Source of the DNA: an uncultured Bacilli bacterium | GTDB taxonomy: Bacteria > Bacillota_I > Bacilli_A > RF39 > UBA660 | Reading direction: 5' to 3' | Assembly (NCBI GenBank): GCA_947589105.1 | Contig: CANQBL010000001.1 | Span: forward strand, 71,146-103,145 | Length of the DNA stretch: 32,000 bases | Part shown: piece by piece, positions 1 through 28,696 of the stretch | How positions within the stretch are numbered: the stretch's first letter is position 1 | Layout: each line of letters begins with the position of its first letter | Notes under the pieces: generated by a model | The model's input: only the letters and a program-made list of their open reading frames with translations | The model's database searches: none | What the model was told of the DNA's origin: nothing | Made by a program: the position numbers and the translations under genes

Positions 1-824
1 AATACATCTCCACACGCATACACATTATCCAAGCTTGTTTTCATATTATTATTAACCAATATTCCTTTATTATCTGTTTTAAGCATTAATTTTTCGTAAT
101 ATGCATCATTTTTTTCTTGTCCTATGCAAACAAATACTGCGTCTATATCTAACGTGGTTCCACTATCTAATTTTATTTTAGATACTCTTTTACCTGTTCC
201 TATTACTTCTAATACTTTACTGTTATAAATTATTTGTACATTTGTTTTTTTAACAATATCTCGTTGTTCTTTTTCATCTGCCCTTAAAACAGAAGAACGA
301 TTAATAACATATACTTTACTTGCTAAATCACTCATATACAAGGCCGATTCCATAGCAGAATTACCACCGCCAATTATAGCAACCACTTTATTTTTATACA
401 AAGTGCCATCACAAATGGTGCAATACGAGATTCCTTTACCTTCATATTTTTCAGCATTTAGGGCACTTAATTTTCTTGGTATTTTACCACTTGCTAATAT
501 TATATATTCCGCACTATATATATTACTTTCTGTAATTACACTATAATTTTTATCTTCCCTTTTAATACTTACTACTTTTTCTGTTTTAAAAGGAACGTCA
601 AGCTCTTCTACTTGAGAATACATTCTAAAAGCAAGTGTAGTTCCATCTTGATCAACATAACCTGGATAATTTTCTATTTTATGAGTTTTATTTAAATTCC
701 CCCCTGGAGAATTAGATTCTAAGATTAGTGGAGTGATTCCTGCTCGTTTTAAATATATAGCTGCTGAAAGCCCACCTGGACCTGCACCTATTATAATAAC
801 TTGATAATTAGACTCCAATTTCAT
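1..824 (-). CDS. trxB: thioredoxin-disulfide reductase; the C-terminal end runs off the window start
   Basis: Absent from the ORF track because it leaves the window. The minus-strand ATG at 824-822 gives MKLESNYQVIIIGAGPGGLSAAIYLKRAG (FAD GxGxxG). In frame follow a CTIC redox dithiol (first Cys codon 422-420), GGGNSAMESA and ...NVYACGDV near position 1. The start overlaps the lgt stop by 17 nt. Confidence 0.85.
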   Translation of the reverse strand, partial: MKLESNYQVIIIGAGPGGLSAAIYLKRAGITPLILESNSPGGNLNKTHKIENYPGYVDQDGTTLAFRMYSQVEELDVPFKTEKVVSIKREDKNYSVITESNIYSAEYIILASGKIPRKLSALNAEKYEGKGISYCTICDGTLYKNKVVAIIGGGNSAMESALYMSDLASKVYVINRSSVLRADEKEQRDIVKKTNVQIIYNSKVLEVIGTGKRVSKIKLDSGTTLDIDAVFVCIGQEKNDAYYEKLMLKTDNKGILVNNNMKTSLDNVYACGDV

Positions 825-1617
825 TTTCACTCGCCACCTCATCAGCATAGTTTTTACACTTTGTTTTTGTTATTATAAACATTACTATTCCAATTATAAT
901 CATTAATATAGAAACTAATTGGGCCACTTTTATATTACCTAACATTAAACTATCTGTTCTAAGAGACTCTATAAAAAATCTTATTACTCCATACCATATA
1001 AGATATATAGCAGTAGTATTACCTAATTTAGTATTTTTAAGACTTCTAAAACCAATTAAAACAAAGAATCCTATTAAACATAAAATTGATTCGTATAAAA
1101 ACGTTGGATGATAGTAATTACCACCAATATGCATACCATCAATAATAAAATTAGGTAAATGAAGCTGCTCTAAAAAGGTCTTTGAAACAACACTTCCGTG
1201 TGCCTCAGCATTGAAAAAATTCCCCCATCTTCCTATTGCTTGTGCCAAAATAACAGCAGGAGCAACTATATCAAGTATCTTCAACACTTTTACCCCATAC
1301 TTTTTACAATAAATTATTAGAGTTATTAATCCTAATATTATACCCCCATGAATAGCAAGACCTCCATTCCATATTTTTATTATTTCTAACGGATATACAC
1401 TATAATAATCTAAATTAAATATAACGTAATATGCTCTTGCTCCTAGTATTCCAAACACAACACACCAAAAAACAAGGTTCGTTACAAACAAAGTTGAAAT
1501 ATTGTTTTTTTTAGCCTCTTTATTTATTAATATACTAGCAATAATTATTCCTAATAAAATACAAATTGAATACCAAGTTACAGTAATTGGCCCCACGCTA
1601 ATAGCTATTTTACTCAT
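808..1617 (-). CDS. lgt: prolipoprotein diacylglyceryl transferase
   Basis: 269-aa polytopic membrane protein with Lgt-type motifs GGLAIHGG, GRWGNFFNAEAHG and ESLRTD. ATG at 1617. Confidence 0.9.
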   Translation of the reverse strand: MSKIAISVGPITVTWYSICILLGIIIASILINKEAKKNNISTLFVTNLVFWCVVFGILGARAYYVIFNLDYYSVYPLEIIKIWNGGLAIHGGIILGLITLIIYCKKYGVKVLKILDIVAPAVILAQAIGRWGNFFNAEAHGSVVSKTFLEQLHLPNFIIDGMHIGGNYYHPTFLYESILCLIGFFVLIGFRSLKNTKLGNTTAIYLIWYGVIRFFIESLRTDSLMLGNIKVAQLVSILMIIIGIVMFIITKTKCKNYADEVASENEIGV

Positions 1618-1618
1618 T

Positions 1619-2065
1619 TTATTTTTTGCACCTTTCTATAAGTGGTTTTATTATAAGACTTTCCATAAGAACATTCATTAAACTTATAAATATTGAAACA
1701 ACAAAAGGTGATAAAAAACCAGTCATATAAAAATGTTTTCCTAAAATTAAATTTACTAATAATAAAATAAAAACATTTATAACAAAATAAAACAAACCAA
1801 GAGACATTCCAATAAGTGGTAAAGTAATTGTTACTAAAACTGGTTTTACTGTCTTATTAAGAACAAAAATTATAATAGCTGCTAAAAATCCATACCAAAA
1901 ATTTTCTACGTACAACGATCTAAATAAATTAGAGGTAATTATTAAGACTAAAGCATAGCCAAACATATATATAAGCCATTCCAAAAACAAATTAAGCCTA
2001 TATTCAATTTCTGAATTTTTATTTTTCTTACTTTTTTTATTATCCTCTACTACTATCACTTTCAT
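1619..2065 (-). CDS. phage-holin-family-4 / DUF360 (YvlD-type) small membrane protein
   Basis: 148 aa with a lysine-rich N-terminus followed by 4 TM helices. The VKPVLVTITLPLIGMSLGLFYFVINVFILLLV pattern is typical of this family. Its stop abuts the lgt start. Confidence 0.5.
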   Translation of the reverse strand: MKVIVVEDNKKSKKNKNSEIEYRLNLFLEWLIYMFGYALVLIITSNLFRSLYVENFWYGFLAAIIIFVLNKTVKPVLVTITLPLIGMSLGLFYFVINVFILLLVNLILGKHFYMTGFLSPFVVSIFISLMNVLMESLIIKPLIERCKK

Positions 2066-2117: not shown

Positions 2118-3077
2118 TTATTTATTTTTAGTAAGTTTATAGAACTGCTTTGCGTTTTGGGATAATATTTTTTCGCAATCACTATAAGTCCATGTATTTC
2201 TTATTCTATCTAAAGAGTTATAATCAATATTTCCACAACAATCTACATTCCAATTATAATCTAAATCAAATAATAATTTATCTGCAGACACAAGTTTTTT
2301 TAAAATGTTAAGATAACCTAAAGAAAAATATTTATTTTTTGGAACACAAACTTTATATGGATCAAGCGAAATATCAAGATCAGGTCCCAAACCAATCATT
2401 ATGTTTTCACTATTGTTTACTATTTTTATAACTTCTTTATCTAAGCAAGCACCATGGTTTAAAGTGCCTCTTAAATTGTTATCAATTAAAAATCTAACCC
2501 ATGAATTAGGACAACATTTATTTCTCCAAAACTTGGTTTCTAGTCCATACCCGTCATCATAATTATAAACTGATGTATGAAGGATTATTGGAACGTTATA
2601 AAATTTAAAAATTTCTATTAATTCCGGTTTAACATCTTCTTTAAAAAAGCCACCACTAAAGCCATGAAATTTAATTGCTTTAGGCTTTGTTTCTTTTATT
2701 AAATTATCAACATAATATGGATCATCTAGTACGCCATGAATCATTGGAACAAAATATATTTTTGTTTTTGTATTTGATTTAGATATCAAATCAAAGTAAT
2801 ATTTATTTACCTTTTCATACGGATTACACAATATTTTTTCCTTTAATATTTTCCCCAAATGATTAACTTGCTTATAATAATGAATTTTTTCATAATTAGT
2901 ATGCTCCCAAATCAAAGCACACGTACTATTATTTTTATCTTTTAAAACAGGCCAAGGCATCGGCATTAAAAGTCCAATATTAATATTATTAAGTAGACAA
3001 AAATTATCATAATCAAATAGTGATGATTCTCCAAAATAATAATCTTTACCAATATGACTATGAGCATCAATTATCAT
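2118..3077 (-). CDS. amidohydrolase-superfamily metal-dependent hydrolase (TIM barrel)
   Basis: The N-terminal IIDAHSHIG motif matches amidohydrolases. The likely start is ATG 3077, preceded by a GGGGGA SD; the track ORF extends to 3110. It lies 42 nt downstream of the Cys-rich peptide gene on the same strand. Confidence 0.55.
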   Translation of the reverse strand: MIIDAHSHIGKDYYFGESSLFDYDNFCLLNNINIGLLMPMPWPVLKDKNNSTCALIWEHTNYEKIHYYKQVNHLGKILKEKILCNPYEKVNKYYFDLISKSNTKTKIYFVPMIHGVLDDPYYVDNLIKETKPKAIKFHGFSGGFFKEDVKPELIEIFKFYNVPIILHTSVYNYDDGYGLETKFWRNKCCPNSWVRFLIDNNLRGTLNHGACLDKEVIKIVNNSENIMIGLGPDLDISLDPYKVCVPKNKYFSLGYLNILKKLVSADKLLFDLDYNWNVDCCGNIDYNSLDRIRNTWTYSDCEKILSQNAKQFYKLTKNK

Positions 3078-3119
3078 ATTATCCCCCCTATTAGATAAAA
3101 ATAAGGACATAACAAGTCC

Positions 3120-3302
3120 TTATTTAATATAAATTTTTCTAACTTCTTTAATATTTTCGTTTTTATCTTTGCATCCTTTACAAGTAGTATTGCAAGATCC
3201 AACACCACCACCACATGCACAACTACTACATACTGAGGCATAAATTTCTGTTAGATTGCTTAAGATTTTACTTTTTGCCTCATTTTTATCAAAAAATTTC
3301 AT
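3120..3302 (-). CDS. 60-aa six-cysteine peptide, candidate RiPP precursor
   Basis: Sequence MKFFDKNEAKSKILSNLTEIYASVCSSCACGGGVGSCNTTCKGCKDKNENIKEVRKIYIK. A strong SD AGGAGGTG (3315-3308) sits 5 nt before the ATG. The ATG (3302-3300) overlaps the TGA (3301-3299) of the radical-SAM gene in an ATGA junction. Confidence 0.65.
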   Translation of the reverse strand: MKFFDKNEAKSKILSNLTEIYASVCSSCACGGGVGSCNTTCKGCKDKNENIKEVRKIYIK

Positions 3303-4645
3303 TGTCTCACCTCCTTTACTTTTTTAACACTATCTTTACTCATTAAATAACCACTTTTTAACAACCACCTTAATGTTTGTTTTGTGTGCATACAAAATGG
3401 CTTGTCTAGTGCCTGTCTACTACCAAATAACGCTTCAGCTTGAATAGCACAACCTCCGCCACAAATAAATAACGCTTTACAATTTAAACATTTTTTATTA
3501 TTTAAAGTACATCTTTGTTTCCAAAATTTAATTTCATCAGAACATAATATTTTTTGTATAGAATCTTTATTAATATTTCCTATTATATATTTATCCGTTT
3601 TTAAGTATCCATGACAAATACATACATCCCCATTCGGTTTTATCGCTAATTGATTAGCACCAATTGCTCCACAATCAGAAAATTTAAATTCATTATTATA
3701 AAAACTATCTATTTTTCTAATAATCCTTCCATCATATATATTGTTTTTAATTAAAATATTATGTGACTTAATAATAAACTTGCAAGCTCTTTTATAATAT
3801 TTTTCCCAATTACAATCATAATTGGTATAGTGGTATAAATTATAAAATATACTTTTTACACCTAATTGTTTTAACCAATTAAGAACTTCATCCTGATTAT
3901 CTAATAAATCCTCAGAAACCGTTATTGATAAACCATACTTACACTTTTGAACATCAAGCATTGGGAATTTTTTTATTACCTCATCATAAACACTTTTGTT
4001 ACTAGTCCTATAAATTCTGTTTTTATCATTTAATTTTTTTGGTCCATCTATGGATATTCCTATTTCTACTTTATGATTAGATAAAAATTTAATTTTTTCT
4101 TCATCTAGTAAAGTAGCATTAGTAACCATTGAAAAATCAATTGGTGAATTTAATTCTACCGATTTATTTAAAATATATTTAATTGTTTCCCAATTTACTA
4201 GAGGTTCACCACCATAAAAAATAACAGACCCTCTTAATTTATTTTCGTTTAAATAATTAGTATATTTAATTAAAGCACTTAGCGCTGTTTTTTTAGACAT
4301 ATTTACTTCTTTTTTGTTATTGAACTGACAATTTTCTATAAAACAATATTTGCAGCCTAAGTTACATGCTGAACTTAAAATAAAATACATAATATTTATT
4401 TTTCCAGTTACTTTTTCATATCTATTTTTTACTATTTCTAAAGCTTTTTTATCTTTATGATAATCATCAACATAAATACCAATTTCTTTTAATTTTAATA
4501 TTTCTTCTTGTGATAGATTAATATTTAATACATCTTCATATTTTTTCTTATTTAAATAAACCACATCCATTATTAAAGAGTTATAAATTGCATATAAATC
4601 TTCTTCTAATTTTACGTGATGAAAAAATTTAGATAACATCATCAT
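3299..4645 (-). CDS. radical SAM / SPASM-domain peptide-modifying enzyme
   Basis: Carries a CNLGCKYC (CxxxCxxC) radical-SAM cluster motif after an ~85-aa N-terminal extension, which may be an RRE-like domain. The C-terminal SPASM signature is CGAIG...GDVCICHG and CLNCKALFICGGGC. The track start at 4651 is GTG; the ATGs at 4645, 4642 and 4639 are more likely. The gene overlaps the upstream GNAT stop. Confidence 0.8.
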   Translation of the reverse strand: MMMLSKFFHHVKLEEDLYAIYNSLIMDVVYLNKKKYEDVLNINLSQEEILKLKEIGIYVDDYHKDKKALEIVKNRYEKVTGKINIMYFILSSACNLGCKYCFIENCQFNNKKEVNMSKKTALSALIKYTNYLNENKLRGSVIFYGGEPLVNWETIKYILNKSVELNSPIDFSMVTNATLLDEEKIKFLSNHKVEIGISIDGPKKLNDKNRIYRTSNKSVYDEVIKKFPMLDVQKCKYGLSITVSEDLLDNQDEVLNWLKQLGVKSIFYNLYHYTNYDCNWEKYYKRACKFIIKSHNILIKNNIYDGRIIRKIDSFYNNEFKFSDCGAIGANQLAIKPNGDVCICHGYLKTDKYIIGNINKDSIQKILCSDEIKFWKQRCTLNNKKCLNCKALFICGGGCAIQAEALFGSRQALDKPFCMHTKQTLRWLLKSGYLMSKDSVKKVKEVRQ

Positions 4646-5105
4646 AATCACCCAATTTTTCTTCCATAATGATTTTACTCATCTTAAAGCCCATTTTCTC
4701 ATAAAGTTTAATCGCCTTTAAGTTATCTTTACATACCTTTAATTCTAAGTAACTTAACTTTTTATCTTCTGCCCACTTTTTAAAGCCATCTATAAGAGAT
4801 TGAGCAATACCATTATTTCTAAATTCTTCTTCCACATACAAAGCATCTAATACCCCTACTTTTTTTAGTTTAGAATCGCCATTATTTTGTATGTATCCAT
4901 AAATATAGCCTACTAACTTTTTACTTTTTTTTGCAATTAAAAGACATACGTCTTCATTATCAAAAAAATTTTCATAAAGAGATTTTACAATACAGTTTTC
5001 ATTTATGTTCTCATCGTATTTTTTCTCATCAACAATTAATTTCGTTAATAAACCATTTACCGCTAAAGCTGATTTATAATCTGCCTTAATTATATCTATG
5101 TTCAT
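4629..5105 (-). CDS. GNAT-family N-acetyltransferase
   Basis: LYVEEEFRNNGIAQSLI matches the acetyl-CoA-binding motif (R/Q-x-x-G-x-G/A). The likely start is ATG 5105, with a GGAGG SD (5115-5111) 5 nt upstream; the track ORF extends to 5156. Confidence 0.75.
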   Translation of the reverse strand: MNIDIIKADYKSALAVNGLLTKLIVDEKKYDENINENCIVKSLYENFFDNEDVCLLIAKKSKKLVGYIYGYIQNNGDSKLKKVGVLDALYVEEEFRNNGIAQSLIDGFKKWAEDKKLSYLELKVCKDNLKAIKLYEKMGFKMSKIIMEEKLGDYDDVI

Positions 5106-5186
5106 ATTTACCTCCTCACTCAAATTATATATTTTGATTAGTGAAATATTTGTCACTTATTATCATACAAAAATAGATATATCAAT

Positions 5187-5606
5187 CTACGTCTCAGATG
5201 TTTCTTCTACTCCTAAACAATAAGCAAATCTTATAAGTGTTTCTTTTTTCTTAATATAGTAATAACCTAAAGAAAATCCAAGATTGTTAGCTATAAATCT
5301 ATCATCATAATTATCTTCTTTATCAAGGTATGTCCAATATATGATTTTTCTTTCCTCAGTAGTTAATCTGTTAAAGGAGGATCTTACATAATTAATGAAA
5401 ACAATTCTATTTTTTAGCTCACAATCATCTTTTTGAAAATAAATATTATTATTTTGAGAAGAATTTAATTGTTCTAATAAAAAATCATTATTTACCTTTG
5501 AAGCAGACTCATTATCAACCGATAAATTGTAATAAATATATTTATTTATTAATTCTTTTACATTTTGTTTGGTCTTTGGCCAATTAACATTTATTGTTTT
5601 CATCAT
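5187..5606 (-). CDS. small ArpU-family / sigma-70 region-4-like transcriptional regulator (tentative)
   Basis: 139 aa. The C-terminal LTTEERKIIYWTYL...FIANNLGFSLGYYYIKKKETLIRFAYCLG resembles the HTH of phage-type ArpU late regulators. An AAGGGAGA SD precedes the ATG. It is the first gene of the same-strand cluster. Confidence 0.4.
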   Translation of the reverse strand: MMKTINVNWPKTKQNVKELINKYIYYNLSVDNESASKVNNDFLLEQLNSSQNNNIYFQKDDCELKNRIVFINYVRSSFNRLTTEERKIIYWTYLDKEDNYDDRFIANNLGFSLGYYYIKKKETLIRFAYCLGVEETSET

Positions 5607-5749: not shown

Positions 5750-8563
5750 TTATTTCAATATTTTTTTTAAATATTTACCAGTATAAGAAGCCGCACAAGT
5801 AGATACTTTTTCAGGAGTTCCTTCACAAACTATCATGCCGCCTCCATCTCCACCTTCAGGACCTAAATCAATTATATGATCAGCTACTTTTATAACATCA
5901 AGATTATGTTCTATTACTATTACCGTATCACCATTATCAACTATTCTATTTAAAATAATTAATAGTTTTTTTATATCATGACTATGAAGACCTGTTGTAG
6001 GTTCATCTAAAATAAATATACTTTTACCGGTTGGCTTTTTTTGTAATTCCTTAGCAAGTTTAACACGAGAAGCTTCTCCTCCTGATAGTGTTGGAGCGCT
6101 TTGACCTAATTTAATATAGCCAAGACCAACATCCATTAATACTTCTAGTTTTCGTTTAATTTTAGGATGGTTTTCGAAAAACTTTAAAGCTTCTTCTACT
6201 CTCATTTGTAAAACATCATATATTGTTTTTTCTTTATATTTAACCTCTAAAGTTTCTTTATTAAACCTAGTTCCCCCACATACCTCACAAGGCACATAAA
6301 CATCAGGTAAGAAATTCATAGATATCCTTTTTACACCATCTCCCCAACATGCTTCACATCTTCCTCCTTTTACGTTAAAAGAAAATCTTCCTTTTTCATA
6401 CCCTCTTATTTTAGCTTCCTTTGTATTTGCAAAAACATCTCTTATGTCATCAAATACACCAACGTAAGTTGCAGGATTACTACGTGGGGTACGTCCTATT
6501 GGATCTTGGGTTATATCTATTACCTTATCAACGTTTTCTAAACCTTTTATACTTTTATATTTACCTGGTACTACCTTTGATGAATAAATATTTAAAGCAA
6601 GAGCTTTATATAAAATTTGATTTACTAAACTACTTTTACCAGAACCAGATACTCCTGTTACTAAAACTAATTTGCCTAATGGAAATTTAACGTTTATATT
6701 TTTTAAGTTATTTTCTTTAGCTCCTTTTATCTCAATAAATTTTCCATTACCCTTTCTTCTTTTTTTAGGTACTTCTATTTGTTTTCTACCACTTAAATAA
6801 TCTCCTGTTAAACTATTTGTGTTTTCCATGACCTCCTTTGGAGTTCCACAAGCAACTATTTCTCCTCCGTGATCACCAGCTCCAGGTCCAACATCAACTA
6901 GATAATCAGCTTGAAGCATTGTATCGGTATCATGTTCTACCACAACTAAAGTATTTCCCAAGTCCCTCATTTTTAAAAGTGAATCAATAAGTCTTTGATT
7001 GTCTCTTTGGTGAAGGCCGATAGAAGGTTCATCTAAAACATATAGCACACCAGTTAATTGAGAGCCGATTTGAGTAGCAAGTCTTATTCTTTGAGCTTCT
7101 CCACCAGATAAAGTGCCTGCACTACGAGATAGTGTCAAATAACCCAAACCAACGTTATGTAAAAACTCTAAACGAGATTTTATTTCTTTTATAAGAAGTC
7201 TTGCTATCTCTTCTTGTTCTTTACTTAATTTTAACTTATCAAAAAAATCATATAACTTATCAATATTCATATCAGTTAAATCAATTATGTTCTTTTTATT
7301 TATCAAAACAGATAATACACTTTCTTTAAGTCTTTTTCCGTGACAAGTAGGACAAGTAAGTTCCACCATATATTTTCCAAGCCATTCTCTTATAAACTCA
7401 CTATTTGTTTCAAAATATCGTCTTTCTAAATTATTTAAAACCCCTTCGTATGGTTCGTAACTATTCATTTGATTACCACTTCTAGTTTTAAATTCAAACT
7501 TAATTGGTTCTTTAGTTCCGTTAAGAATTATATCTAACTCTTTTCTTGTTAAATCCTTCATTTTTTTATTCATATCTATACCATATTTATCGCACACAAT
7601 TTCTAATTTTTTTATATAGATATTTTGATCATCCATTCCCGAAAGAGGTTCTATTCCGCCTCTTACAAGTGTTTTTTCTTTATCAGGTATAATTAAATCT
7701 TCACTTATTTTTTGCTTAAAGCCAAGCCCTTTACAATCCGGACAAGAACCATACGGAGCATTAAAACTAAACATTCTAGGTTCTAATTCCTCTAAAGAAA
7801 AATCACAATGAGGACACGCGAATGACTCACTCATAACTATTTCTTCTTTACCTGGAATTTCAACTACTGCTTTTCCTTTAGAAAGTTTACAAGCAAGTTC
7901 TATTGCTTCATATATTCTGCTTCTTGATTCTTCTTTTTTTATTATTCTATCAATAACAACTAATATGTTATGTTTTTTATTTTTATCTAAATTTATTTTT
8001 TCATTTAAATCCTTAGTTTCTCCATCTACTTTTACTCTAATGTATCCTTCTTTTCTTAAACTTTCCAATAAATCTTTATGAGTTCCTTTTTCACCATAAA
8101 TAACTGGAGACAAAATAATTAACTTATTTCCATCTTCTTCGTTCATTATTTGAGTTGTCATTTCTTCTATCGATTGACTTGATATTGGAATATTATGATT
8201 GGGGCAATAAGGCACTCCGATACGAGCATACAAAAGTCTAAAATAATCATATATTTCCGTTACCGTACCAACGGTTGATCTTGGGTTGTTATTAGTTGTT
8301 TTTTGATCTATTGAAATAGAAGGAGAAAGCCCTTCTATTGAGTCAACATCTGGTTTTGAAGTTCCACCTAAGAATTGTCTAGCATAAGCAGACAAACTTT
8401 CTACGTACCTTCTTTGACCTTCTGCATATATCGTATCAAAAGCAAGACTTGATTTTCCACTACCAGATACACCAGTCATAACAGTTAATTTATTTTTAGG
8501 TATTTCGATGTTAACGTTTTTTAAATTGTTTTCTCTTGCACCTTTTACTATTATTTTATCCAT
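5750..8563 (-). CDS. uvrA: excinuclease ABC subunit A
   Basis: Two ABC modules (GVSGSGKSS twice, LSGGE signatures) and CxxC zinc modules. The canonical N-terminus MDKIIVKGARENNLKNV starts at ATG 8563 after a GGTGG SD; the track ORF extends to 8596. Confidence 0.97.
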   Translation of the reverse strand: MDKIIVKGARENNLKNVNIEIPKNKLTVMTGVSGSGKSSLAFDTIYAEGQRRYVESLSAYARQFLGGTSKPDVDSIEGLSPSISIDQKTTNNNPRSTVGTVTEIYDYFRLLYARIGVPYCPNHNIPISSQSIEEMTTQIMNEEDGNKLIILSPVIYGEKGTHKDLLESLRKEGYIRVKVDGETKDLNEKINLDKNKKHNILVVIDRIIKKEESRSRIYEAIELACKLSKGKAVVEIPGKEEIVMSESFACPHCDFSLEELEPRMFSFNAPYGSCPDCKGLGFKQKISEDLIIPDKEKTLVRGGIEPLSGMDDQNIYIKKLEIVCDKYGIDMNKKMKDLTRKELDIILNGTKEPIKFEFKTRSGNQMNSYEPYEGVLNNLERRYFETNSEFIREWLGKYMVELTCPTCHGKRLKESVLSVLINKKNIIDLTDMNIDKLYDFFDKLKLSKEQEEIARLLIKEIKSRLEFLHNVGLGYLTLSRSAGTLSGGEAQRIRLATQIGSQLTGVLYVLDEPSIGLHQRDNQRLIDSLLKMRDLGNTLVVVEHDTDTMLQADYLVDVGPGAGDHGGEIVACGTPKEVMENTNSLTGDYLSGRKQIEVPKKRRKGNGKFIEIKGAKENNLKNINVKFPLGKLVLVTGVSGSGKSSLVNQILYKALALNIYSSKVVPGKYKSIKGLENVDKVIDITQDPIGRTPRSNPATYVGVFDDIRDVFANTKEAKIRGYEKGRFSFNVKGGRCEACWGDGVKRISMNFLPDVYVPCEVCGGTRFNKETLEVKYKEKTIYDVLQMRVEEALKFFENHPKIKRKLEVLMDVGLGYIKLGQSAPTLSGGEASRVKLAKELQKKPTGKSIFILDEPTTGLHSHDIKKLLIILNRIVDNGDTVIVIEHNLDVIKVADHIIDLGPEGGDGGGMIVCEGTPEKVSTCAASYTGKYLKKILK

Positions 8564-8667
8564 TACTACCACCTTTTCTAATACTAATTTTAACATAAAA
8601 GATTATTTTTATTTCAAAAAAAGAAACATTAATCTATGCTATTATTAGTTCTTTTTTCTAGTTATAT

Positions 8668-8712: not shown

Positions 8713-9618
8713 TTACTTTTTGCTATAAAAAGTTATTCTCATACCATGAGACTTTGTTTCAAACAAATAATTTTTATGTTCATCCACAAATTTAGGTATT
8801 ATTCCATTTTTTCCTATATCTATACAATTTTCATATTTTATAGTACCATATCCTGCCTGCACTAGACCATCACTTGTTAGATTACTATTTAATGATTTTA
8901 ATAATTTTAAAAATTCTTTTAATTCTTCTTTATTGAAATAACTACTAATATTAGAAAATACCATTGCTGAATAACTTTCGTTATCCAAATGTTTTTTTAA
9001 ATCAAATATACTACAATCAACAAAATCAATATTTTTTATCTCTTTTAGTTTTTGCTTTAACTCTTCATAATTTTTTCTTGTTAAATATCCCGATAATTTA
9101 GGATTATATTTAATATTAATTAAATTAAATTTTTCATCAACCGATGCGGTTTTCATAAATTCATAAAGTTGTTCAAAAAAGCTAGCACAAGGATAGTTCA
9201 AGTTAGAACATACCTTATTATATAAATTAACATCAGGACTGGCTAAAAATCCACCCGCAATAGAATTTGAAAATGGCACGTTTACCTTATATAACTTTTT
9301 AAATTCTTCATATGATAAACAGCTAATTGCCATAAATTTAAAAATAGTAAAATACTTTGCTAAGCAGTTAATATCAAACATCTTAACATAAGGTGCCCCA
9401 TTTAATATTGCCATTAGAGCTTGGTCTCCAGATGCTGTTACGGTTAAAACTCCTTTGCTAGAATCAAGAAAATTAAATATATCGCTTAAGCGATCATTTG
9501 TAAACGGATAAATATTATCATATTTACAAAAATAAGGAGCGAATTGATCTTTTCCAACTATCGCTAATGCTTCCAATTTAAAAAAGTCTTCATCTGCCAT
9601 TTGTTTTGTTATTTTCAT
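8713..9618 (-). CDS. DUF3419 / BtaA-like SAM-dependent transferase-fold protein
   Basis: 301 aa. GVLTVTASGDQALMAILNGAPYVKMFDINCLAKYFTIFKFMAISCLSYEEFKKLY follows the pattern I recall for DUF3419: SAM-binding loop, acidic residue, then LK..ai..L.yeeF. A GGAGTG SD precedes ATG 9618. Confidence 0.45.
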   Translation of the reverse strand: MKITKQMADEDFFKLEALAIVGKDQFAPYFCKYDNIYPFTNDRLSDIFNFLDSSKGVLTVTASGDQALMAILNGAPYVKMFDINCLAKYFTIFKFMAISCLSYEEFKKLYKVNVPFSNSIAGGFLASPDVNLYNKVCSNLNYPCASFFEQLYEFMKTASVDEKFNLINIKYNPKLSGYLTRKNYEELKQKLKEIKNIDFVDCSIFDLKKHLDNESYSAMVFSNISSYFNKEELKEFLKLLKSLNSNLTSDGLVQAGYGTIKYENCIDIGKNGIIPKFVDEHKNYLFETKSHGMRITFYSKK

Positions 9619-16968: not shown

Positions 16969-17574
16969 TTAATTTACTTTTTTTATAAATAAAAAATTAA
17001 AAGATTCCTTTCTTCCATAAATTTCTCTAATTAAACTTTCATAGGAAAATGCAACGCCAATTTGATCATCACCTATTTTATTTGGATTAATAACATAAAA
17101 ATTATTGTTTTCATCTATATCACTAACTACTAGGTAATGACCATAATGGGAAAAAGTACCTTCATAGTTTTCATAATTATCTGCTGGTCCAACATGAATA
17201 ATAGCCATATTGCCATTTCTAATATTATCAATAATTCTCTTTTTTTGTTCTTCAGGATTATTAAAATTAATTTTTATTATCTCATATTCAATTTTTATTT
17301 TATCTTCTTTAATAAGTCTATCTAAGCAATATATTAAACCTTTAGAGCTTATACCTTTTGATTTTAAATAGATATTATCAAAATTTCCATTTTTATCAAC
17401 AATTATCTTTTTTACTATTTCAATGGGATTATACTTTATCCCATAATTTGAAAGTATAATAGCTATAGAAGTCGGTCCACAACCCCTATGCGGAATATCC
17501 CAATCTCCTAATTTATCCCTAAATTCATTTATAGTATAATCTAATTGCCTATACCTAATTCTATTTTGATTCAT
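16969..17574 (-). CDS. C39-like (papain-fold) cysteine peptidase domain protein, cytoplasmic
   Basis: 201 aa. HRGCGPTSIAIILSNYG matches the C39_2-type catalytic Cys motif, and GHYLVVSDID supplies the downstream His. There is no signal peptide or TM helix. An AGGAGA SD precedes the start. Confidence 0.5.
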   Translation of the reverse strand: MNQNRIRYRQLDYTINEFRDKLGDWDIPHRGCGPTSIAIILSNYGIKYNPIEIVKKIIVDKNGNFDNIYLKSKGISSKGLIYCLDRLIKEDKIKIEYEIIKINFNNPEEQKKRIIDNIRNGNMAIIHVGPADNYENYEGTFSHYGHYLVVSDIDENNNFYVINPNKIGDDQIGVAFSYESLIREIYGRKESFNFLFIKKVN

Positions 17575-17604
17575 TTTCTATCTCCTAAATAAAATTATGG
17601 AAAT

Positions 17605-17678
17605 ATGTTGAAAATATTTTTTTCGTAAAGTTTCATCATTTTCCAAAAAATGATGAAAAATGAGGAAATTTTCAACAT
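17605..17678. repeat. nested imperfect palindrome in a cassette spacer
   Basis: Outer 11-bp arms are ATGTTGAAAAT (17605-17615) and ATTTTCAACAT (17668-17678). Inner perfect 12-bp arms are TTTCATCATTTT (17631-17642) and AAAATGATGAAA (17647-17658), with a 4-nt loop. Word pair TGATGAA/TGAGGAA starts at 17651 and 17661. Confidence 0.8.
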
Positions 17679-17803
17679 TTGTTTACCAACTTTAATTTTT
17701 TTAATCTTATTCATATTTATGAACACAATACCTTATCAAAAATAAATATTATTTTGATAATCGTTTAAATCTTTCTTTTAATATTTCTCCTTCAGCCTAT
17801 ATT

Positions 17804-17813
17804 TTATAAAACC
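17804..17813 (-). repeat. TTATAAAACC core decamer, possibly a third and heavily degraded junction
   Basis: The same 10-mer follows the secA stop (22156-22165) and the SEC-C remnant at 20079-20088. Here the flanking tail-coding sequence is only weakly recognisable. Confidence 0.3.
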
Positions 17814-17920
17814 ATATAAATTATAAGCATTTCTAAAAGATTCTTAAATATGATTTTATATATTTTTTAATTATTGTTGAATATGTATCTTTATATAATT
17901 CTCGCATTTGTTATATAAAA

Positions 17921-18499: not shown

Positions 18500-18597
18500 A
18501 ATTATCTTACCCTTCTATTTATTTTGACACAAATTTATAAAACTTTCAAAAATACAATTCCTATTATTACTTTCTTTAGTTTTTATCTCCAATTCTT

Positions 18598-19806
18598 TTA
18601 AACAGATTTATATAATCTAATACTTATTATTATTTCTATAATTGATAATACAAATAATATTACTACTACAGTAATCATTGGATTATTTAATAAAATAATT
18701 GTAAAACCTAAGCTCATTGTTGCTCTTACAATTTTTCTTGATAATTCCATTGTTGTCAATAAAGATTGTTGTCCTTCTTTTCCGACATTTCTTAACGCTA
18801 AATCTTGCATATATACTTTAAATGGATCTCTAATAAATAATATAATTATATACCCAAAACTCATAATACTAAATTTTAGTATTATAGAGTTTCTAATAAA
18901 ATATCCTAATATCATAAATATAATAGATGCACAAAGCAATGCCGGTAAAATAACCCCGACCTTTTCCTTATATTTATTGTGTATTTTATTAAAAGCTATA
19001 TTAGAAATAACTCTTACAATTCGAGAAATAGATAATATACCACCAATTACTAAAGCGGTTTTTTCTACGTTAAAGTTTAAAAGCAATTCCTGTTGTATAA
19101 ATAATTTTCCATTAAATTGGCCAGAATTTACAATAGGATAAAATAGACCATAAGAAATGATTAATAATATTATTAATCTATTATATCTTATCTTTTTACT
19201 TGTTTTAAGTTTTATTTCTTCTATTTTAATTTTGTCATAATTAGAAAAATCAATTATATAAAATGACAATATAAAACATATTAAACAAAAGGCAATACAA
19301 CACAACATTGGTAAATAATTATTAAAATTAAACATTATACTTACAATAAATGATATAATCATTGTTACTGTTGCATATATAGTATTAGATTTTGTTTTTA
19401 TTTTTATATATTCATTATTTCTATTTTGCAATTCAAGATTATTTTTTAATATAGCATTTGACATATTTTGAAATGTAAGTGCAATTTCATAAATAATCTT
19501 TCCCAAAGCAATAACTAGATAGTTTTGGCCAAATGTTAATAATATACTTGATATTAATAATGTTAAAGAACCTAACCTAACTGATTTTGTATTTCCTATT
19601 TTTTTAATTATTTTTAATAGTGGAACTTGCAATAATATACAAGCTATTAATGAAACAGTAGTCAAAGAAACTATCTGTGATGAATTAAAATTTTTTACAA
19701 CAGTTAAAAACAATGTATCTATTGCTACCCAAAATAATAAATCACTCGATAAACCTGTATATAGAGGAAATATTTTATTAAACTTCTTCATTCCATCTTG
19801 CTTCAT
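18598..19806 (-). CDS. MFS-type transporter
   Basis: 402 aa with about 12 predicted TM helices in two halves. It lies 98 nt upstream of the P-loop gene with no intervening hairpin, so the two are probably an operon. Confidence 0.7.
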   Translation of the reverse strand: MKQDGMKKFNKIFPLYTGLSSDLLFWVAIDTLFLTVVKNFNSSQIVSLTTVSLIACILLQVPLLKIIKKIGNTKSVRLGSLTLLISSILLTFGQNYLVIALGKIIYEIALTFQNMSNAILKNNLELQNRNNEYIKIKTKSNTIYATVTMIISFIVSIMFNFNNYLPMLCCIAFCLICFILSFYIIDFSNYDKIKIEEIKLKTSKKIRYNRLIILLIISYGLFYPIVNSGQFNGKLFIQQELLLNFNVEKTALVIGGILSISRIVRVISNIAFNKIHNKYKEKVGVILPALLCASIIFMILGYFIRNSIILKFSIMSFGYIIILFIRDPFKVYMQDLALRNVGKEGQQSLLTTMELSRKIVRATMSLGFTIILLNNPMITVVVILFVLSIIEIIISIRLYKSV

Positions 19807-19967
19807 TTATTTTTATCTTCCTTACTTTTTTTCTTATTTTTTTAAATTCATTGCTTTATCTATTATTACCCTTCTTGTTCTTTATTTTTTTAGCATTGTT
19901 TATAATTTTAATTGCTTTAATTGTATCTTCAAATGTTATTTCTTGAAAATATAGTTAATGGAACATC

Positions 19968-20003
19968 AGTATGTATAGTATTATAGGTATTATCCGTATT
20001 ATC
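19968..20003 (-). repeat. degenerate 9-bp tandem repeat block (GATAATACS / TATAATACT type)
   Basis: Minus strand reads GATAATACGGATAATACCTATAATACTATACATACT. It is related to the ATAAATACY blocks at 20147-20183, 20954-20996 and 21022-21050. Confidence 0.6.
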
Positions 20004-20010
20004 TTTATTT

Positions 20011-20061: not shown

Positions 20062-20089
20062 TAGAATTTGCAATCTCTTATAAAACCTG

Positions 20090-20199: not shown

Positions 20200-20215
20200 C
20201 TCATCTGCAAACAAT

Positions 20216-20689
20216 TTACAAACATTGTTTGCATCCGTTTACTAATTTAATTATATCATCTATCATTATATCAATATCATTTTCTAGGCATATTTTTGCT
20301 TTTTCTAAAGAATTATAAGCATTGGTAAGTATAACTTTATCATATACTATGTTATATTTATTTAACCAATCAAATGTCATTTTATAAGGATCAGAATATT
20401 CGCCATTATCTCTACCACTTATAATATATATTTCATTTCCTTCTTCTTTTAATTTTCTTATATATTCTGGTGCATTTTCTAAAACATTAAGACTTTTAGC
20501 AATTCTTTCAATATTATCATGATAATATTGCTGTTCTTCATCTTTTGGCCAGTTGAACATATCTCTTATATAAACATTATTTTTGATTATACCATTATTT
20601 CCTAATTCTTTATCATGATTAATATAATCATTTAATAATACTTCATTAAAATTTGATAAAACATTATCAATATCAATACCTATACGCAT
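20216..20689 (-). CDS. HAD-superfamily 5'(3')-deoxyribonucleotidase-like protein, C-terminus apparently replaced
   Basis: HAD motif I is DIDNVL, followed by ISGR and motif IV MIDD. The ORF ends only 12 codons after motif IV, inside the TGCAAAC word repeat. An AGAGGTGAG SD precedes the start. Confidence 0.6.
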   Translation of the reverse strand: MRIGIDIDNVLSNFNEVLLNDYINHDKELGNNGIIKNNVYIRDMFNWPKDEEQQYYHDNIERIAKSLNVLENAPEYIRKLKEEGNEIYIISGRDNGEYSDPYKMTFDWLNKYNIVYDKVILTNAYNSLEKAKICLENDIDIMIDDIIKLVNGCKQCL

Positions 20690-21200: not shown

Positions 21201-21803
21201 TTAAAATTTTTTTTCGTATATAAATGCTAGTTCTTTATTAACTTTTCCTAATTTTCCATATTCTTTATTTTCAATAATAGTTTGATAAACCTTTTTGCAT
21301 CCAACGCTTTCATATACTCCATAACTACATGATTCATCAGTTAATATTTGAAGATTTTTCATATTGTCTTTTTTTGCTAAATCAAATACATCTAACAATA
21401 ATTTTTTGCCTATACCTCTTCCCCTATATTGTTTATCCAAAATCAACATTGATAATTCACCATCAAAATAATCTCTCATATTATCAGGAACATAATCATA
21501 ATTTTTTTCATATTCCTTTAAAGCATTAACATCTTTTATTTCTTTACTTTTATATAATAGCTTTTTAACAAAAGCATAAAATTTTTTCTTTAATATATGC
21601 TTTTTTGAGTTCCATTTTGAATATCCTGCAAACCCCAACAATTTATTATTTTCCTTATAATAAACAAATTGTTCTGATTCTTCTAATATTTCTAATAGAT
21701 AAATCCATGCACATAATCTTCGACTGGCACCACTTTCAACTTCGCCTAAATCCCACTCATTTTCTAATAATTCTACTGCTCTCTTCATATCATTAAGTTT
21801 CAT
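21201..21803 (-). CDS. GNAT-family N-acetyltransferase
   Basis: ILDKQYRGRGIGKKLLLDVFDLAKK matches the acetyl-CoA motif. The likely start is ATG 21803 (MKLNDMKRAVELL) after a GGTGA SD; the track start at 21815 is TTG. Confidence 0.75.
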   Translation of the reverse strand: MKLNDMKRAVELLENEWDLGEVESGASRRLCAWIYLLEILEESEQFVYYKENNKLLGFAGYSKWNSKKHILKKKFYAFVKKLLYKSKEIKDVNALKEYEKNYDYVPDNMRDYFDGELSMLILDKQYRGRGIGKKLLLDVFDLAKKDNMKNLQILTDESCSYGVYESVGCKKVYQTIIENKEYGKLGKVNKELAFIYEKKF

Positions 21804-21969
21804 TTTTATCACCAATTTTAATATTTACTTTTTTAATATTATATCATGAAAAAACAATGCTATAAATTTTTTTGTTAAATTTTATTGTCTTTTATAACTT
21901 TATTTCTTATTTATACTTAATAAATCAAAAAACTTTACGGTAACACAAAAATATACTTAATTACATAAA

Positions 21970-25871: not shown

Positions 25872-26483
25872 ATGAAAAAACGTTTTCTAAATTCAATTAG
25901 AAATTCTATTAAAAAGCAATACCCTAATTATTCAAAAGATAAAATTGATGAAATAATGTACGGTGTCGAAGGAATATACTTAATGATAACAAAAACTATA
26001 ATAATATTTTTATTAGCTTTTATATTAGGTATATTTAAAGAACTTTTATATTTACTTATTGCTTTTAATTTTATTAGGCTTTTTGCATTTGGTATGCATG
26101 CCAACAAAAGTATTATATGTCTTGTTTTTTCAACTTTATTATTTATAGGCGGTGCATTTTTATGTAAATATGTAACACTAAATAAATTAGTTTTATACAT
26201 ATTTTACTTATTAGCTTTTATAATTATTACTATTTTTTCTCCTGCAGATACGGTAAAAAGACCCCTAATAAATAAGAAAAAAAGAAATAAATTTAAATTT
26301 TTATCAATTATAACAACATTAATTTATTTTATATTAACTCTATTTATTAAAAACAACTTAATTATTAATAGTCTTATATTTGGTCTTATCATAGAATGCA
26401 TTTTAATATCACCTTTGACTTATAAAATTTTTAAAATGCCATATAAAAACTATGTTAATTATGGTTTAAACACTTTTAATTAA
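25872..26483 (+). CDS. agrB: AgrB-family autoinducing-peptide processing endopeptidase
   Basis: 203-aa polytopic membrane protein. FIRLFAFGMHANKSIIC has His and Cys spaced 7 residues apart, as in the S. aureus AgrB catalytic pair H77/C84. A basic loop KRPLINKKKRNK is also present. Confidence 0.85.
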   Translation: MKKRFLNSIRNSIKKQYPNYSKDKIDEIMYGVEGIYLMITKTIIIFLLAFILGIFKELLYLLIAFNFIRLFAFGMHANKSIICLVFSTLLFIGGAFLCKYVTLNKLVLYIFYLLAFIIITIFSPADTVKRPLINKKKRNKFKFLSIITTLIYFILTLFIKNNLIINSLIFGLIIECILISPLTYKIFKMPYKNYVNYGLNTFN

Positions 26484-26519: not shown

Positions 26520-26645
26520 ATGAAAGCAATGTTAATTTCTATTGTTTCAGCATTAGGAGCTTTAGTTGCAGCTTCTGCAACTAGCGGATGTGTTATAGTA
26601 TGGGTTGATGAACCAACAATGCCTAAAGCAATGTTAGAAAAGTAA
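26520..26645 (+). CDS. agrD: AgrD-type autoinducing-peptide precursor (41 aa; below the ORF-track size cut-off)
   Basis: An AAGGAGG SD (26504-26510) precedes the ATG at 26520. Translation is MKAMLISIVSALGALVAASATSGCVIVWVDEPTMPKAMLEK: an amphipathic leader, a single Cys, and the acidic DExxxPK tail typical of AgrD. It lies 36 nt after agrB. Confidence 0.8.
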   Translation: MKAMLISIVSALGALVAASATSGCVIVWVDEPTMPKAMLEK

Positions 26646-26672
26646 AAGAAAAAGCTTTTATTGCTTTTTCTT
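26646..26672. terminator. bidirectional terminator shared by agrBD and the convergent kinase gene
   Basis: AAGAAAAAGC-TTTTATT-GCTTTTTCTT (10-bp stem) with T-runs on both sides. It overlaps the last codons of the kinase ORF. Confidence 0.6.
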
Positions 26673-27962
26673 TTTTATTTGTATAATTAAATTTGTTATA
26701 AAATAATCGTTGTCCAACTTATTTTCTACGTTCAAGCATTCATTTTCATTTACTATGTCATTAACTAATCTCAGTCCATAACCATGTCCATTTCCTTTTG
26801 TTGAATGACCAGAACCTAATTTAGACATATCTATTTTTCCTTTATATGTATTTGAAATGCTAAAAATAACTTTAGAAGATTCTTTTATTGAAGAAATAGT
26901 AATTTTTTTATTTTTACTTTCTTTACTTGCATCAATTGCATTATCTAATAACACACCTAATATTTTAGTAATATTTTTATACATTATCGTATCTAAAGTC
27001 TTTAATTTTGTTTTTACTCCATATTCAACATTAATTTCATATTTGATATTTTCATCATCCATCATTGATAATTTATAATATAAAAGTCCTTTTATACCTC
27101 CATCAGGAAAATTATTAAGTTGGCTTATTAAATAACTACTATGTGTTTTTTTAGTATCATCTACGATTGAATCTAAATACTCAATTAGTTTAGGTGACTT
27201 CATTTGAGCATAACCACGAATAACCATCAACTGGTTTCTAAACTCATGATTTGCTTTTCCTTGATCCGTAATTATTTTTTCGTATTTAGTAACATAATTA
27301 AGCATCTGTTTATTTTGTTCATTTAACTTATCATATTTTGATTCATTTTTTATTATTACGGTTAATATTGCAACTATACCAATAATAAATAATATATTAA
27401 CATAATAATTTGATTTAAGTATTAATTCTAAACCATTTTTTGATACTATTAAATATACAACAAATATAAATATGTATAAATAATTTATTAATTTTGAATT
27501 TTTATCAAACATATTATTTATTTTATAAATAATCTTAATAAAAAAAGGAATATATATTAAACAAATAGATAATAGTGATATTAAAATATTTGCCAAAAGA
27601 TTATAAAGATTATTATTAACAATATCAACAGAATTAATTCCAAAAAGTACTAAAAATAAAGTTACTATTATTTCACTAATTGACATTATCATCTCTAAAT
27701 TGAAAGAATATAAAATTAATTTTTTATCCTTTATTTTTAAAAAGAAGTATATAATTAAAGAAGTTATTATTATAAATAAAATAAATCTAATTTGGTTTGG
27801 AATAAATAAAAAACATATCGAGCAATAAATACACATTGGAATTAGTAATTTTATTTTTTCTTTTAAAGCTTTAATTTGTATTTGTCTACAAATAATAATT
27901 GTCGCAGCCGTGCCCTGAAATAATGAAACTATTATACTTATAATTATTTTTTCTACACTCAT
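26658..27962 (-). CDS. AgrC/HPK10-type sensor histidine kinase
   Basis: 434 aa. The N-terminal sensor has about 6-7 TM helices. H-box HEFRNQLMVIRGY, N-box LLDNAIDA, G-box GHGYGL. The start overlaps the regulator stop (ATGA at 27962-27959). Confidence 0.85.
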   Translation of the reverse strand: MSVEKIIISIIVSLFQGTAATIIICRQIQIKALKEKIKLLIPMCIYCSICFLFIPNQIRFILFIIITSLIIYFFLKIKDKKLILYSFNLEMIMSISEIIVTLFLVLFGINSVDIVNNNLYNLLANILISLLSICLIYIPFFIKIIYKINNMFDKNSKLINYLYIFIFVVYLIVSKNGLELILKSNYYVNILFIIGIVAILTVIIKNESKYDKLNEQNKQMLNYVTKYEKIITDQGKANHEFRNQLMVIRGYAQMKSPKLIEYLDSIVDDTKKTHSSYLISQLNNFPDGGIKGLLYYKLSMMDDENIKYEINVEYGVKTKLKTLDTIMYKNITKILGVLLDNAIDASKESKNKKITISSIKESSKVIFSISNTYKGKIDMSKLGSGHSTKGNGHGYGLRLVNDIVNENECLNVENKLDNDYFITNLIIQIKKKKQ

Positions 27963-28669
27963 AAAATCTCCCTTAATTTCCTTTTATAATTTTTGGATAA
28001 ATAGTCTATACTTTTATCACAATTAAAATAAATTATACTATTTTTAAAATCAACACTTTCTATTTTATCAATATTAATATAACAAGCCCTATGTGTTTGA
28101 TGAAACCTAGAATCTAATTTTTTTATTATGTTTAATAAAGTGTCATTTACTGGATATTCATCTTCTTCGGTTACTATTGTTGTTTTATTACTTTCGCTAT
28201 CTTTATAAATATATAATATATTATCTAAATTTACGTGATGCAGTTCTTTATTACATCTAAAACTTAAAACTTTTTTTAATTCTATTTTGTTAATTACCAT
28301 TTTTAACGTATCAGATAATCTTTCTTCATAATTATCAAATTTTGAGATGAAATCAAATATTAAAAGTTTTTGTTTTAAAACATTAAGTTCTAATTCATCA
28401 TGAGAAGTTAATATGATTATTATACTATCCCAATCTACTTTTCTAATTTCTCTTGCTATTTCTATTCCGGTTTTGTTAGGTAACTCCAAATCCAAAATAT
28501 AAATTTTTATATCAAGAGGGGTGTTTATTATGTTTTTTAATTTAATGCTATATTTATCAAAAGAATGAATGTTATAGCTAAAATCATATGGCATAGCTAC
28601 TTTTTTAATAATAGCATTATTTAAATCAGTAACATATTTATTATCATCACAAAGTATAAAATTAATCAT
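27959..28669 (-). CDS. LytTR-family response regulator (AgrA-like)
   Basis: The receiver domain begins MINFILCDDN and is followed by a C-terminal LytTR domain (...FHQTHRACYINIDKIESVD). The likely start is ATG 28669 after a GGGTGA SD; the track start at 28681 is GTG. Confidence 0.88.
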   Translation of the reverse strand: MINFILCDDNKYVTDLNNAIIKKVAMPYDFSYNIHSFDKYSIKLKNIINTPLDIKIYILDLELPNKTGIEIAREIRKVDWDSIIIILTSHDELELNVLKQKLLIFDFISKFDNYEERLSDTLKMVINKIELKKVLSFRCNKELHHVNLDNILYIYKDSESNKTTIVTEEDEYPVNDTLLNIIKKLDSRFHQTHRACYINIDKIESVDFKNSIIYFNCDKSIDYLSKNYKRKLREIL

Positions 28670-28696
28670 ACTATCACCCACTTAATTATAACATAA

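Follow-up and report, generated by a model that had tools for sequence, protein, structure and literature searches.

The window analysed here, a stretch of 32,000 nucleotides (nt) from an uncultured Bacilli bacterium (assembly GCA_947589105.1, contig CANQBL010000001.1, positions 71,146 to 103,145), contained the gene of a radical S-adenosylmethionine (rSAM)/SPASM enzyme beside that of a six-Cys peptide, and this arrangement raised the question of whether the two formed a RiPP (ribosomally synthesised peptide with post-translational modifications) system and which of the adjoining genes belonged to it. Five minus-strand open reading frames (ORFs) were located between uvrA (8596..5750) and a Phage_holin_4_2 membrane protein gene (2065..1619) plus lgt (1617..808); the first-pass annotation had called them as one compact five-gene operon, and all five were indeed present: an ArpU-like gene, a GNAT N-acetyltransferase gene, the rSAM/SPASM maturase gene, the precursor peptide gene, and a gene for an amidohydrolase-fold protein. 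The locus was probably a four-gene RiPP cassette composed of GNAT, a maturase bearing a RiPP recognition element (RRE), the precursor, and the amidohydrolase-fold enzyme. The cassette family appeared, with fair probability, to be small and undescribed and to occur in uncultured low-GC gut Bacilli, with the FibroRumin system as its closest described relative.

The maturase and its precursor peptide

The maturase gene (3299..4651, on the minus strand as are the other features of the locus) encoded 450 amino acids (aa) as listed, and its true start probably lay 3 to 4 codons inside the listed ORF. The product matched Radical_SAM PF04055, Fer4_12 PF13353, and SPASM PF13186 (1.6e-8). The CxxxCxxC cluster motif (4343..4366), spaced C96-x3-C100-x2-C103, was invariant in alignments of 19, 59, and 66 sequences; in the SPASM region (3392..3673), C327, C346, C388, C391, C401, and C420 were likewise invariant and C397 was nearly so, and these seven Cys would be enough for two auxiliary Fe-S clusters. 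Both the CxxxCxxC motif and the full SPASM motif named in the first-pass annotation were thus found, and the segment quoted there, CLNCKALFICGGGC, occurred in the maturase translation.

The best NCBIfam match of the maturase was FibroRumin TIGR04136 (254 bits, cut-off 400; residues 6-432 aligned, the N-terminal domain among them), followed by PapB NF047865 (165.4 bits, cut-off 340), the anaerobic sulfatase maturase (anSME) family TIGR03942 (130 bits, cut-off 349), and SCIFF TIGR03974 (122.9 bits, cut-off 425), with weaker matches to CcpM and CefB, both maturases of Cys-rich peptides. The searches against TIGR03974 and CcpM that had been proposed at the outset therefore gave matches, but both were under cut-off; memberships in SCIFF, PapB, and CcpM were rejected on these scores. 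The enzyme was also no canonical anaerobic sulfatase maturase, an identity rejected on three grounds: the sub-cut-off score, the presence of an RRE-like domain, and the lack of a sulfatase gene in the neighbourhood. The closest annotated relative in plasmid records was a FibroRumin maturase from Campylobacter sp. RM16187 (35 % identity). A profile search of the PDB gave CteB (4e-43), TigE (2e-37; 8VPO, residues 10-433), and anSME (1e-32).

The AlphaFold2 (AF2) model of the maturase, built from 59 sequences, had a predicted local distance difference test (pLDDT) score of 92.7, and its top Foldseek matches were CteB, TigE, and anSME, with CteB and TigE first. The N-terminal module (residues ~5-85, 4397..4639; delimited by the model and by the TigE profile alignment) was modelled with a pLDDT of 85-97 over residues 1-90 and consisted of strands 10-16, 19-24, and 31-33 and then helices 35-42, 48-56, and 64-81; this arrangement, in which three helices succeed three strands over residues 10-81, is the topology of an RRE, and a Pfam scan of the N-terminus gave no sequence match to PF05402. 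The RRE that had been surmised in the N-terminal extension was accordingly modelled as a beta-beta-beta-alpha-alpha-alpha RRE-like domain aligning with the RRE-bearing CteB and TigE, of which 5WGG (CteB) and 8VPO (TigE) serve as RRE reference structures (PMC12710340). Taken on its domains and relatives, the enzyme was a genuine RiPP rSAM/SPASM peptide maturase.

The precursor gene (3120..3302; 60 aa) overlapped the maturase gene by 4 nt, the rSAM stop codon sharing ATGA with the peptide start, and it was preceded by a ribosome-binding site (AAAGGAGGTG) 6 nt 5' of the ATG. Its product carried six Cys, at positions 25, 28, 30, 37, 41, and 44. Alignment of 37 homologues divided the peptide into three parts: (i) the first ~20 residues, which varied; (ii) core residues 22-47 (3162..3239), near-invariant as ASVC[S/N]SCACGGGxx[S/T]CNTTCKGCKDK and the presumed modification site; and (iii) a Cys-free C-terminal tail (3123..3161; NENIKEVRKIYIK), conserved as xENIKEVRxxYxK and a candidate follower or recognition segment, whose motif N-[IVL]-x-x-V-x-x-[IV]-Y was retained even in distant family members. 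In pairwise comparisons between loci, the 26 core codons displayed 5-13 synonymous versus 1-3 non-synonymous changes (e.g., 11 versus 2), and the 19 codons 5' of the core displayed 13-17 non-synonymous versus 0-1 synonymous ones. The mostly synonymous changes in the core meant that the peptide ORF was translated and that its core was under strong purifying selection. RiPP precursors usually combine a conserved leader with a variable core; this pattern was inverted here. A 55-aa ORF at 3074..3241, overlapping the peptide gene, was set aside as its shadow.

Searched with a profile, a set of 1.84 billion representative proteins gave 14 matches, 13 of which were short peptides of this precursor family, all retaining SVC[N/S]SC ... 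TCKGCxD[K/S] ... V-x-x-[IV]-Y. The peptide had no Pfam or NCBIfam match even at E<=10, and neither it nor two distant relatives matched the FibroRumin precursor family TIGR04135 (cut-off 45 bits) at E<=1, a family on which the genuine FibroRumin peptides of locus L008 reached 64-70 bits (L-numbers denote the loci of relatives compared with the window). A literature search on FibroRumin, TIGR04135/TIGR04136, and the peptide motifs returned nothing relevant and no paper with the peptide motif. The proposal that the system was undescribed was borne out to this extent: no curated family or paper was found that covers the maturase/peptide pair.

The peptide gene adjoined the enzyme gene in every related locus examined (L002, L003, L005, L006, L082-L094, L100-L102, L104, and L106), so that its absence from homologous loci, which would have spoken against the pair, was not observed; the maturase and the Cys-rich precursor were a genuine pair. 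The peptide lay downstream of the enzyme in L002, L003, L005, L082-L093, L100-L102, L104, and L106, and upstream of it in L006 and L094; two peptide copies were present in L090, and in L103 the peptide was directly upstream of the hydrolase on a short contig beginning before the enzyme gene. The downstream position of the precursor, initially held to be unusual, was therefore the rule in this family. Loci came in part from a genome-collection scan with the enzyme alignment, which returned mostly generic SPASM enzymes and in which only L002-L013 were useful.

A separate observation concerned P0216 (85 aa, on a 1.6-kb Logan contig), in which a maturase SPASM end (...CLNCEAIYTCGGG) was fused directly to a peptide core (TSSCNTTCKGCKDK...). 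The fusion resembled a deletion or an assembly join at a common C-GGG sequence, and the peptide CxxCxCGGG resembled the maturase motif CxxCx5CGGGC.

Extent of the cassette and its accessory enzymes

The conserved unit was composed of GNAT, rSAM, peptide, and hydrolase, in at least three genomic contexts. This four-gene order was found (i) in the uvrA-lgt context in L002, L082, L083, and L100-L102 and (ii) in unrelated contexts in L084, L086/L087, L104, and L106, down to ~58 % enzyme identity. For 16 pairs of enzyme and hydrolase clusters the longest contigs were of identical size, and for 7 of these 16 the peptide cluster shared that size too. The tight packing reported earlier was confirmed, with the GNAT and rSAM genes overlapping by 14-23 nt in addition to the 4-nt overlap of rSAM and peptide. 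Relatives of the cassette came from chicken-, rabbit-, and ruminant-gut assemblies, and one closely related peptide cluster was labelled Candidatus Aphodocola (a Bacilli incertae sedis genus).

The fifth gene, ArpU-like (5187..5606; 139 aa), was found in every locus of the uvrA-lgt context listed above and was missing in L084, L086, and L104; it was a lineage-specific neighbour outside the conserved core. The notion of a five-gene unit thus held in that all five genes were real but gave way to a conserved cassette of four, since the ArpU-like gene occurred only in the uvrA-lgt lineage. Its product scored 45.5 bits on TIGR01637, barely above the cut-off of 43.1, and matched phrog_248 "transcriptional activator" at 5e-12; it was accordingly classed as an ArpU-like (sigma-region-4-like) transcriptional activator and may be a local regulator of the cassette. 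The 81-nt spacer between the ArpU-like gene and GNAT (5106..5186), in which a five-locus alignment displayed a -10-like TATAAT and an AGGAGG ribosome-binding site, was a putative cassette promoter.

The GNAT ORF as listed ran 5156..4629, and its true start was very likely ATG 5105 (4629..5105; 158 aa), because the source-contig gene call began there and a conserved AGGAGG lay just 5'. The protein was RimI-like: it matched PF00583 with 69.6 bits against a gathering score of 20.7 (E 3.7e-19) and RimI TIGR01575 with 51.6 bits, under the cut-off, and it reached no NCBIfam equivalog cut-off. Orthologues with 46-64 % identity were present in every four-gene cassette, and L094 had a 40 % orthologue together with no hydrolase.

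The hydrolase ORF was listed at 3110..2118, and its start was reassigned to M12 at position 3077 (2118..3077; 319 aa) because homologues all began MIID-HSH and a GGGGG ribosome-binding site lay upstream. The protein had no Pfam or NCBIfam match at E<=10; a PDB search gave nothing with the single sequence and only chance-level matches with the profile. Homologous clusters numbered 59 among 5.8 billion, and 11 of 26 relatives matched PF04909 weakly (best 3.8e-6), the window protein itself giving no match. The AF2 model (26 sequences; pLDDT 95) was a TIM barrel into which an additional beta-sheet had been inserted at residues ~43-81, and Foldseek assigned it probability 1.0 to many amidohydrolase-fold structures, including 2f6k, ACMSD, DHBD, IDCase, dihydroorotase, and SfbO/AibH (E down to 3e-8, template modelling score 0.5-0.63, 10-14 % identity). 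Counted from M12, residues H6, H8, K136, H138, H167, H208, D271, and D273 were invariant; they presumably occupy the amidohydrolase metal-ligand sites, namely, the HxH of strand 1, the strand-4 Lys, the His of strands 5 and 6, and the strand-8 Asp, which suggests a mono- or binuclear metal centre. On this modelling the 319-aa protein is predicted to be a divergent (beta/alpha)8 barrel of the amidohydrolase superfamily; the earlier label of amidohydrolase agreed with the predicted fold, but it was unobtainable from the sequence libraries for this protein.

Among loci with readable flanks, members of the hydrolase family with at least 45 % identity occurred in this cassette alone, and those with 31-39 % identity adjoined other rSAM genes and Cys-containing small ORFs (L095, L107, L108, L121, and L122/L123). 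The family was thus tied repeatedly, not exclusively, to rSAM peptide clusters, often with acetyltransferases. The gene contents of three of these loci differed as follows: (i) hydrolase, a 37-aa peptide ending SIVCDRCM, three SPASM enzymes, and a B12-rSAM in L095 (199-6798); (ii) a truncated CysRS-like gene, hydrolase, rSAM, double rSAM, another gene, and a full CysRS in L107 (4894-12517); and (iii) hydrolase, rSAM, and a 48-aa Cys-rich peptide ending DCNCIDCDEDADCSTPW in L121 (2603-4694).

Proposed pathway and competing explanations

In the four-gene reading, the 60-aa peptide is translated in coupling with the maturase, as the overlapping stop and start codons show, and the RRE-like domain would bind it via the YASV junction, the C-terminal tail (N-I-x-x-V-x-x-I-Y), or both; these core-flanking segments are proposed as the RRE contact because the first ~20 peptide residues were not conserved. 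The rSAM centre and two SPASM clusters would then form cross-links between the six invariant Cys and neighbouring residues, most likely thioethers to side-chain or alpha carbons of Thr, Asn, or Asp of the ranthipeptide and sactipeptide type, a product suggested by family resemblance only. In sactipeptides the Cys sulfur is bound to the alpha carbon of an acceptor residue, and in ranthipeptides to its beta or gamma carbon. Thr, Asn, and Asp are known ranthipeptide acceptors (PMC8326336), and the core offered CNTTC and CKDK, with such residues near Cys. GNAT may acetylate a peptide amine (N-terminus or Lys), and the metal-dependent hydrolase may cleave an amide, thereby trimming a flanking segment or removing an acetyl group; a deacetylase role opposite GNAT is as open as follower removal.

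Comparison with the SCIFF/ranthipeptide systems (CteA/CteB, Tte1186; PapB/freyrasin; NxxcB) brought out several shared features: both sides had an RRE-rSAM-SPASM maturase plus a short six-Cys peptide, a minimal gene set without a dedicated exporter, and a highly conserved core; CteB was the closest solved structure; and core Thr, Asn, and Asp lay beside Cys as in the known acceptors (PMC8326336). Unlike those systems, the window precursor was unrelated in sequence, was placed downstream of the enzyme, and varied at its N-terminus but not in its conserved C-terminal tail, and the cassette added GNAT and the amidohydrolase-fold enzyme. No exporter or immunity genes were found beside the cassette or in the L-locus neighbourhoods examined; together with the invariant core, this favours a product that is conserved for a physiological or signalling role, as with SCIFF, and argues against a fast-evolving bacteriocin. 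SCIFF clusters are minimal two-gene systems. The lack of both peptidase and exporter, singled out at first as unusual, was less remarkable than that, as the broader family was itself a minimal two-gene system and the hydrolase of the cassette could be a peptidase.

FibroRumin (TIGR04136/TIGR04135) resembled the cassette in being the best-scoring family for the maturase and in having Cys-rich precursors with conserved Cys-free ends; it differed in that a true member (L008) scored 794 bits against 254 for the window maturase, which left the cut-off of 400 unreached, and in that FibroRumin loci (L008-L010) had one to three precursors upstream and neither GNAT nor hydrolase. As an aside on these loci, L009 (3321-5447) and L010 (2306-4444) each carried a gene for a UvrA-like ABC ATPase of 708-712 aa (TIGR00630, 323 bits, under cut-off) directly downstream of the FibroRumin maturase; the L008 contig ended before the point where such a gene might lie. 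The housekeeping uvrA of the window merely happened to be the upstream neighbour of the cassette.

For the hydrolase, the bottromycin enzyme PurAH/BotAH, a dinuclear Zn amidohydrolase removing a C-terminal follower peptide (PMC10885120), offered a parallel: an amidohydrolase in a RiPP cluster, set against a window peptide with a Cys-free tail and a window hydrolase with invariant residues of the HxH/K/H/H/D type. By this analogy, processing of the peptide could fall to the hydrolase, acting as a peptidase; the likeness is one of analogy only, as PurAH was not among the top 50 fold matches and no direct similarity comparison was made. These 50 were Amidohydro_2-type decarboxylases, dihydroorotases, and dinuclear oxygenases. 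Amidohydro_2 enzymes (ACMSD, LigW/IDCase, and 2,3-DHBD) and SfbO/TruffO/AibH had the closest folds (E 3e-8 to 1e-5), and the window hydrolase differed from them by its lack of a Pfam match, its extra beta-sheet insertion, and its invariant strand-4 Lys; an O2-dependent role would be unlikely for it in the anaerobe-type rSAM context.

Several observations weighed against a thioether-forming four-gene cassette: (i) relatives at 45-52 % enzyme identity (L088-L093) retained just enzyme and peptide, and GNAT and hydrolase were therefore both dispensable for the basic modification; (ii) a terminator-like hairpin lay between the peptide and hydrolase genes; (iii) ~35 % hydrolase relatives at 13 loci (L097, L099, L109-L114, L116, L117, L119, L120, and L124) stood in an operon, present wholly or in part, without rSAM or peptide, and the fold family was therefore not peptide-specific; (iv) the closest fold neighbours of the hydrolase were decarboxylases; (v) the NCBIfam matches of the maturase, mostly RiPP maturase families, all stayed under cut-off; and (vi) TigE, the second-closest solved structure, forms C-C bonds, so that a Cys-rich substrate does not prove thioethers.

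The hairpin and T-run (3099..3125) extended over the peptide stop codon into the 42-nt gap between peptide and hydrolase. It was missed by a simple terminator scan and revealed by RNA folding (-14.4 kcal/mol for the 61-nt stretch containing it); it was found at the same place in L002, L082, and L084, the fold in L086 being much weaker (-4.9 kcal/mol), and in the two-gene relatives L003 and L088 it was a strong operon terminator. Within the cassette it is probably a partial terminator raising the ratio of precursor to enzyme transcript.

The order of the peptide-free operon was APH-like, TrpRS-like, CAT-like, NT5C-like, hydrolase, YgjV, RimJ-like GNAT, TyrRS, and second TyrRS. The APH-like protein had 554 aa, the divergent TrpRS-like protein had 333 aa, the CAT-like protein was an O-acetyltransferase, and the second TyrRS had ~45 % identity. 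This operon was apparently undescribed, and the duplication of its synthetases suggests that it serves to make an aminoacyl-type inhibitor or to resist one.

The first three of these observations would fit a system made of maturase and peptide alone, with GNAT and hydrolase as unrelated travellers from detoxification or metabolism: the broader family was a two-gene unit, the hairpin and T-run followed the peptide gene, and hydrolase relatives accompanied acetyltransferases in the operon with aminoacyl-tRNA synthetase paralogues. The surroundings of L086 were likewise rich in resistance-like genes (APH, Peptidase_S66, Acetyltransf_3, and ABC_tran, an ABC ATPase). We nevertheless consider this explanation unlikely, in view of the overlap of GNAT with rSAM, of a gene order kept in at least three unrelated contexts to ~58 % enzyme identity, and of a hydrolase clade (at least 45 % identity) restricted to this cassette while other members stood beside rSAM/peptide clusters.

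A second alternative, which leaves the four genes together, is that the maturase installs a non-thioether change (C-C bond, cyclopropanation, epimerisation, or Cys oxidation) and that the Cys serve for metal binding or disulfides. TigE needs a TVG-type and anSME a CxPxR-type substrate motif, and neither motif was in the peptide. By profile and fold these two enzymes were nearly as close as CteB and no family cut-off was reached; TigE is a cyclopropylglycine synthase (PMC10878394), and its place among the closest structures means that fold and family identify the enzyme as a peptide maturase and do not fix the type of bond formed. The nearest families (FibroRumin, PapB, and SCIFF, and more weakly CcpM and CefB) use Cys-rich precursors or form thioethers, and the six Cys were an invariant feature of the core; the alternative is quite improbable, and thioether cross-links are the most likely product by analogy with these families.

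It is very improbable that the peptide is a sacrificial scaffold from which the hydrolase excises a cofactor-like or signalling small molecule by mycofactocin/PQQ logic: a metal hydrolase did adjoin the rSAM/SPASM enzyme as MftE adjoins MftC, invariance extended to the core and to the tail motif [IV]-Y, with the N-terminus free to vary, and there was no exporter or immunity gene, but the Tyr was not C-terminal, hydrolase-less members kept the same peptide architecture, and the closest enzyme families produce cross-linked peptides.

Genomic surroundings and significance of the cassette

The ArpU-like and holin-like neighbours had prompted the idea of a prophage origin, and this was rejected on the evidence of viral and phage searches and of the holin context. 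A search of viral contigs gave no relatives of the hydrolase or of the ArpU-like protein, and tblastn against phage records gave no match. The Phage_holin_4_2 gene was coupled to lgt and was missing beside the cassette in other genomic contexts; it went together with lgt, not with the cassette. The window had a low GC content (~22-33 %), and an Rfam search of it returned zero RNA families.

Further loci were recognised elsewhere in the window. A complete agr-type quorum-sensing locus was present at 25872-28681: (i) AgrB (25872..26483, plus strand; PF04647, 6e-38) and a 41-aa AgrD candidate (26520..26645, plus strand; MKAMLISIVSALGALVAASATSGCVIVWVDEPTMPKAMLEK) and, (ii) convergent to these, an AgrC-like histidine kinase (27962..26658) and a LytTR response regulator (28681..27959). 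The region 16969-21815 contained a Peptidase_C39_2-like stand-alone protein (17574..16969), a 192-aa protein, an MFS transporter (19806..18598), an NT5C-like nucleotidase (20689..20216), and a second GNAT (21815..21201); these genes lay 11-18 kb from the cassette with housekeeping genes between, and there was no sign that they serve the peptide. A 301-aa DUF3419-family protein was inserted between uvrB and uvrA (8713-9618).

As to what is known and what is new, the general principle was that of rSAM peptide natural-product systems, and the cassette was a new branch, not a new principle. New were the precursor/maturase family, its inverted conservation, and two accessory enzymes that none of the compared thioether-RiPP systems contained. 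A more far-reaching proposal, which we advance tentatively and hold to be doubtful, is that the 319-aa protein founds a hitherto unrecognised amidohydrolase-fold family dedicated to processing rSAM-modified peptides (at least five different rSAM clusters), with recognition and processing directed in this cassette by a C-terminal follower instead of an N-terminal leader. The product would then be a peptide that is acetylated, carries multiple cross-links, keeps its core invariant, and fills a physiological or signalling role conserved among uncultured gut Bacilli.

Radical-SAM/SPASM RiPPs increasingly yield unusual peptide chemistry, and many rSAM-RiPP families are uncharacterised. Current understanding of them is not overturned by this cassette, which is well delimited and experimentally tractable; its inverted conservation makes leader-versus-follower recognition directly testable, and its hydrolase family of 59 clusters may be a new type of RiPP-processing enzyme.

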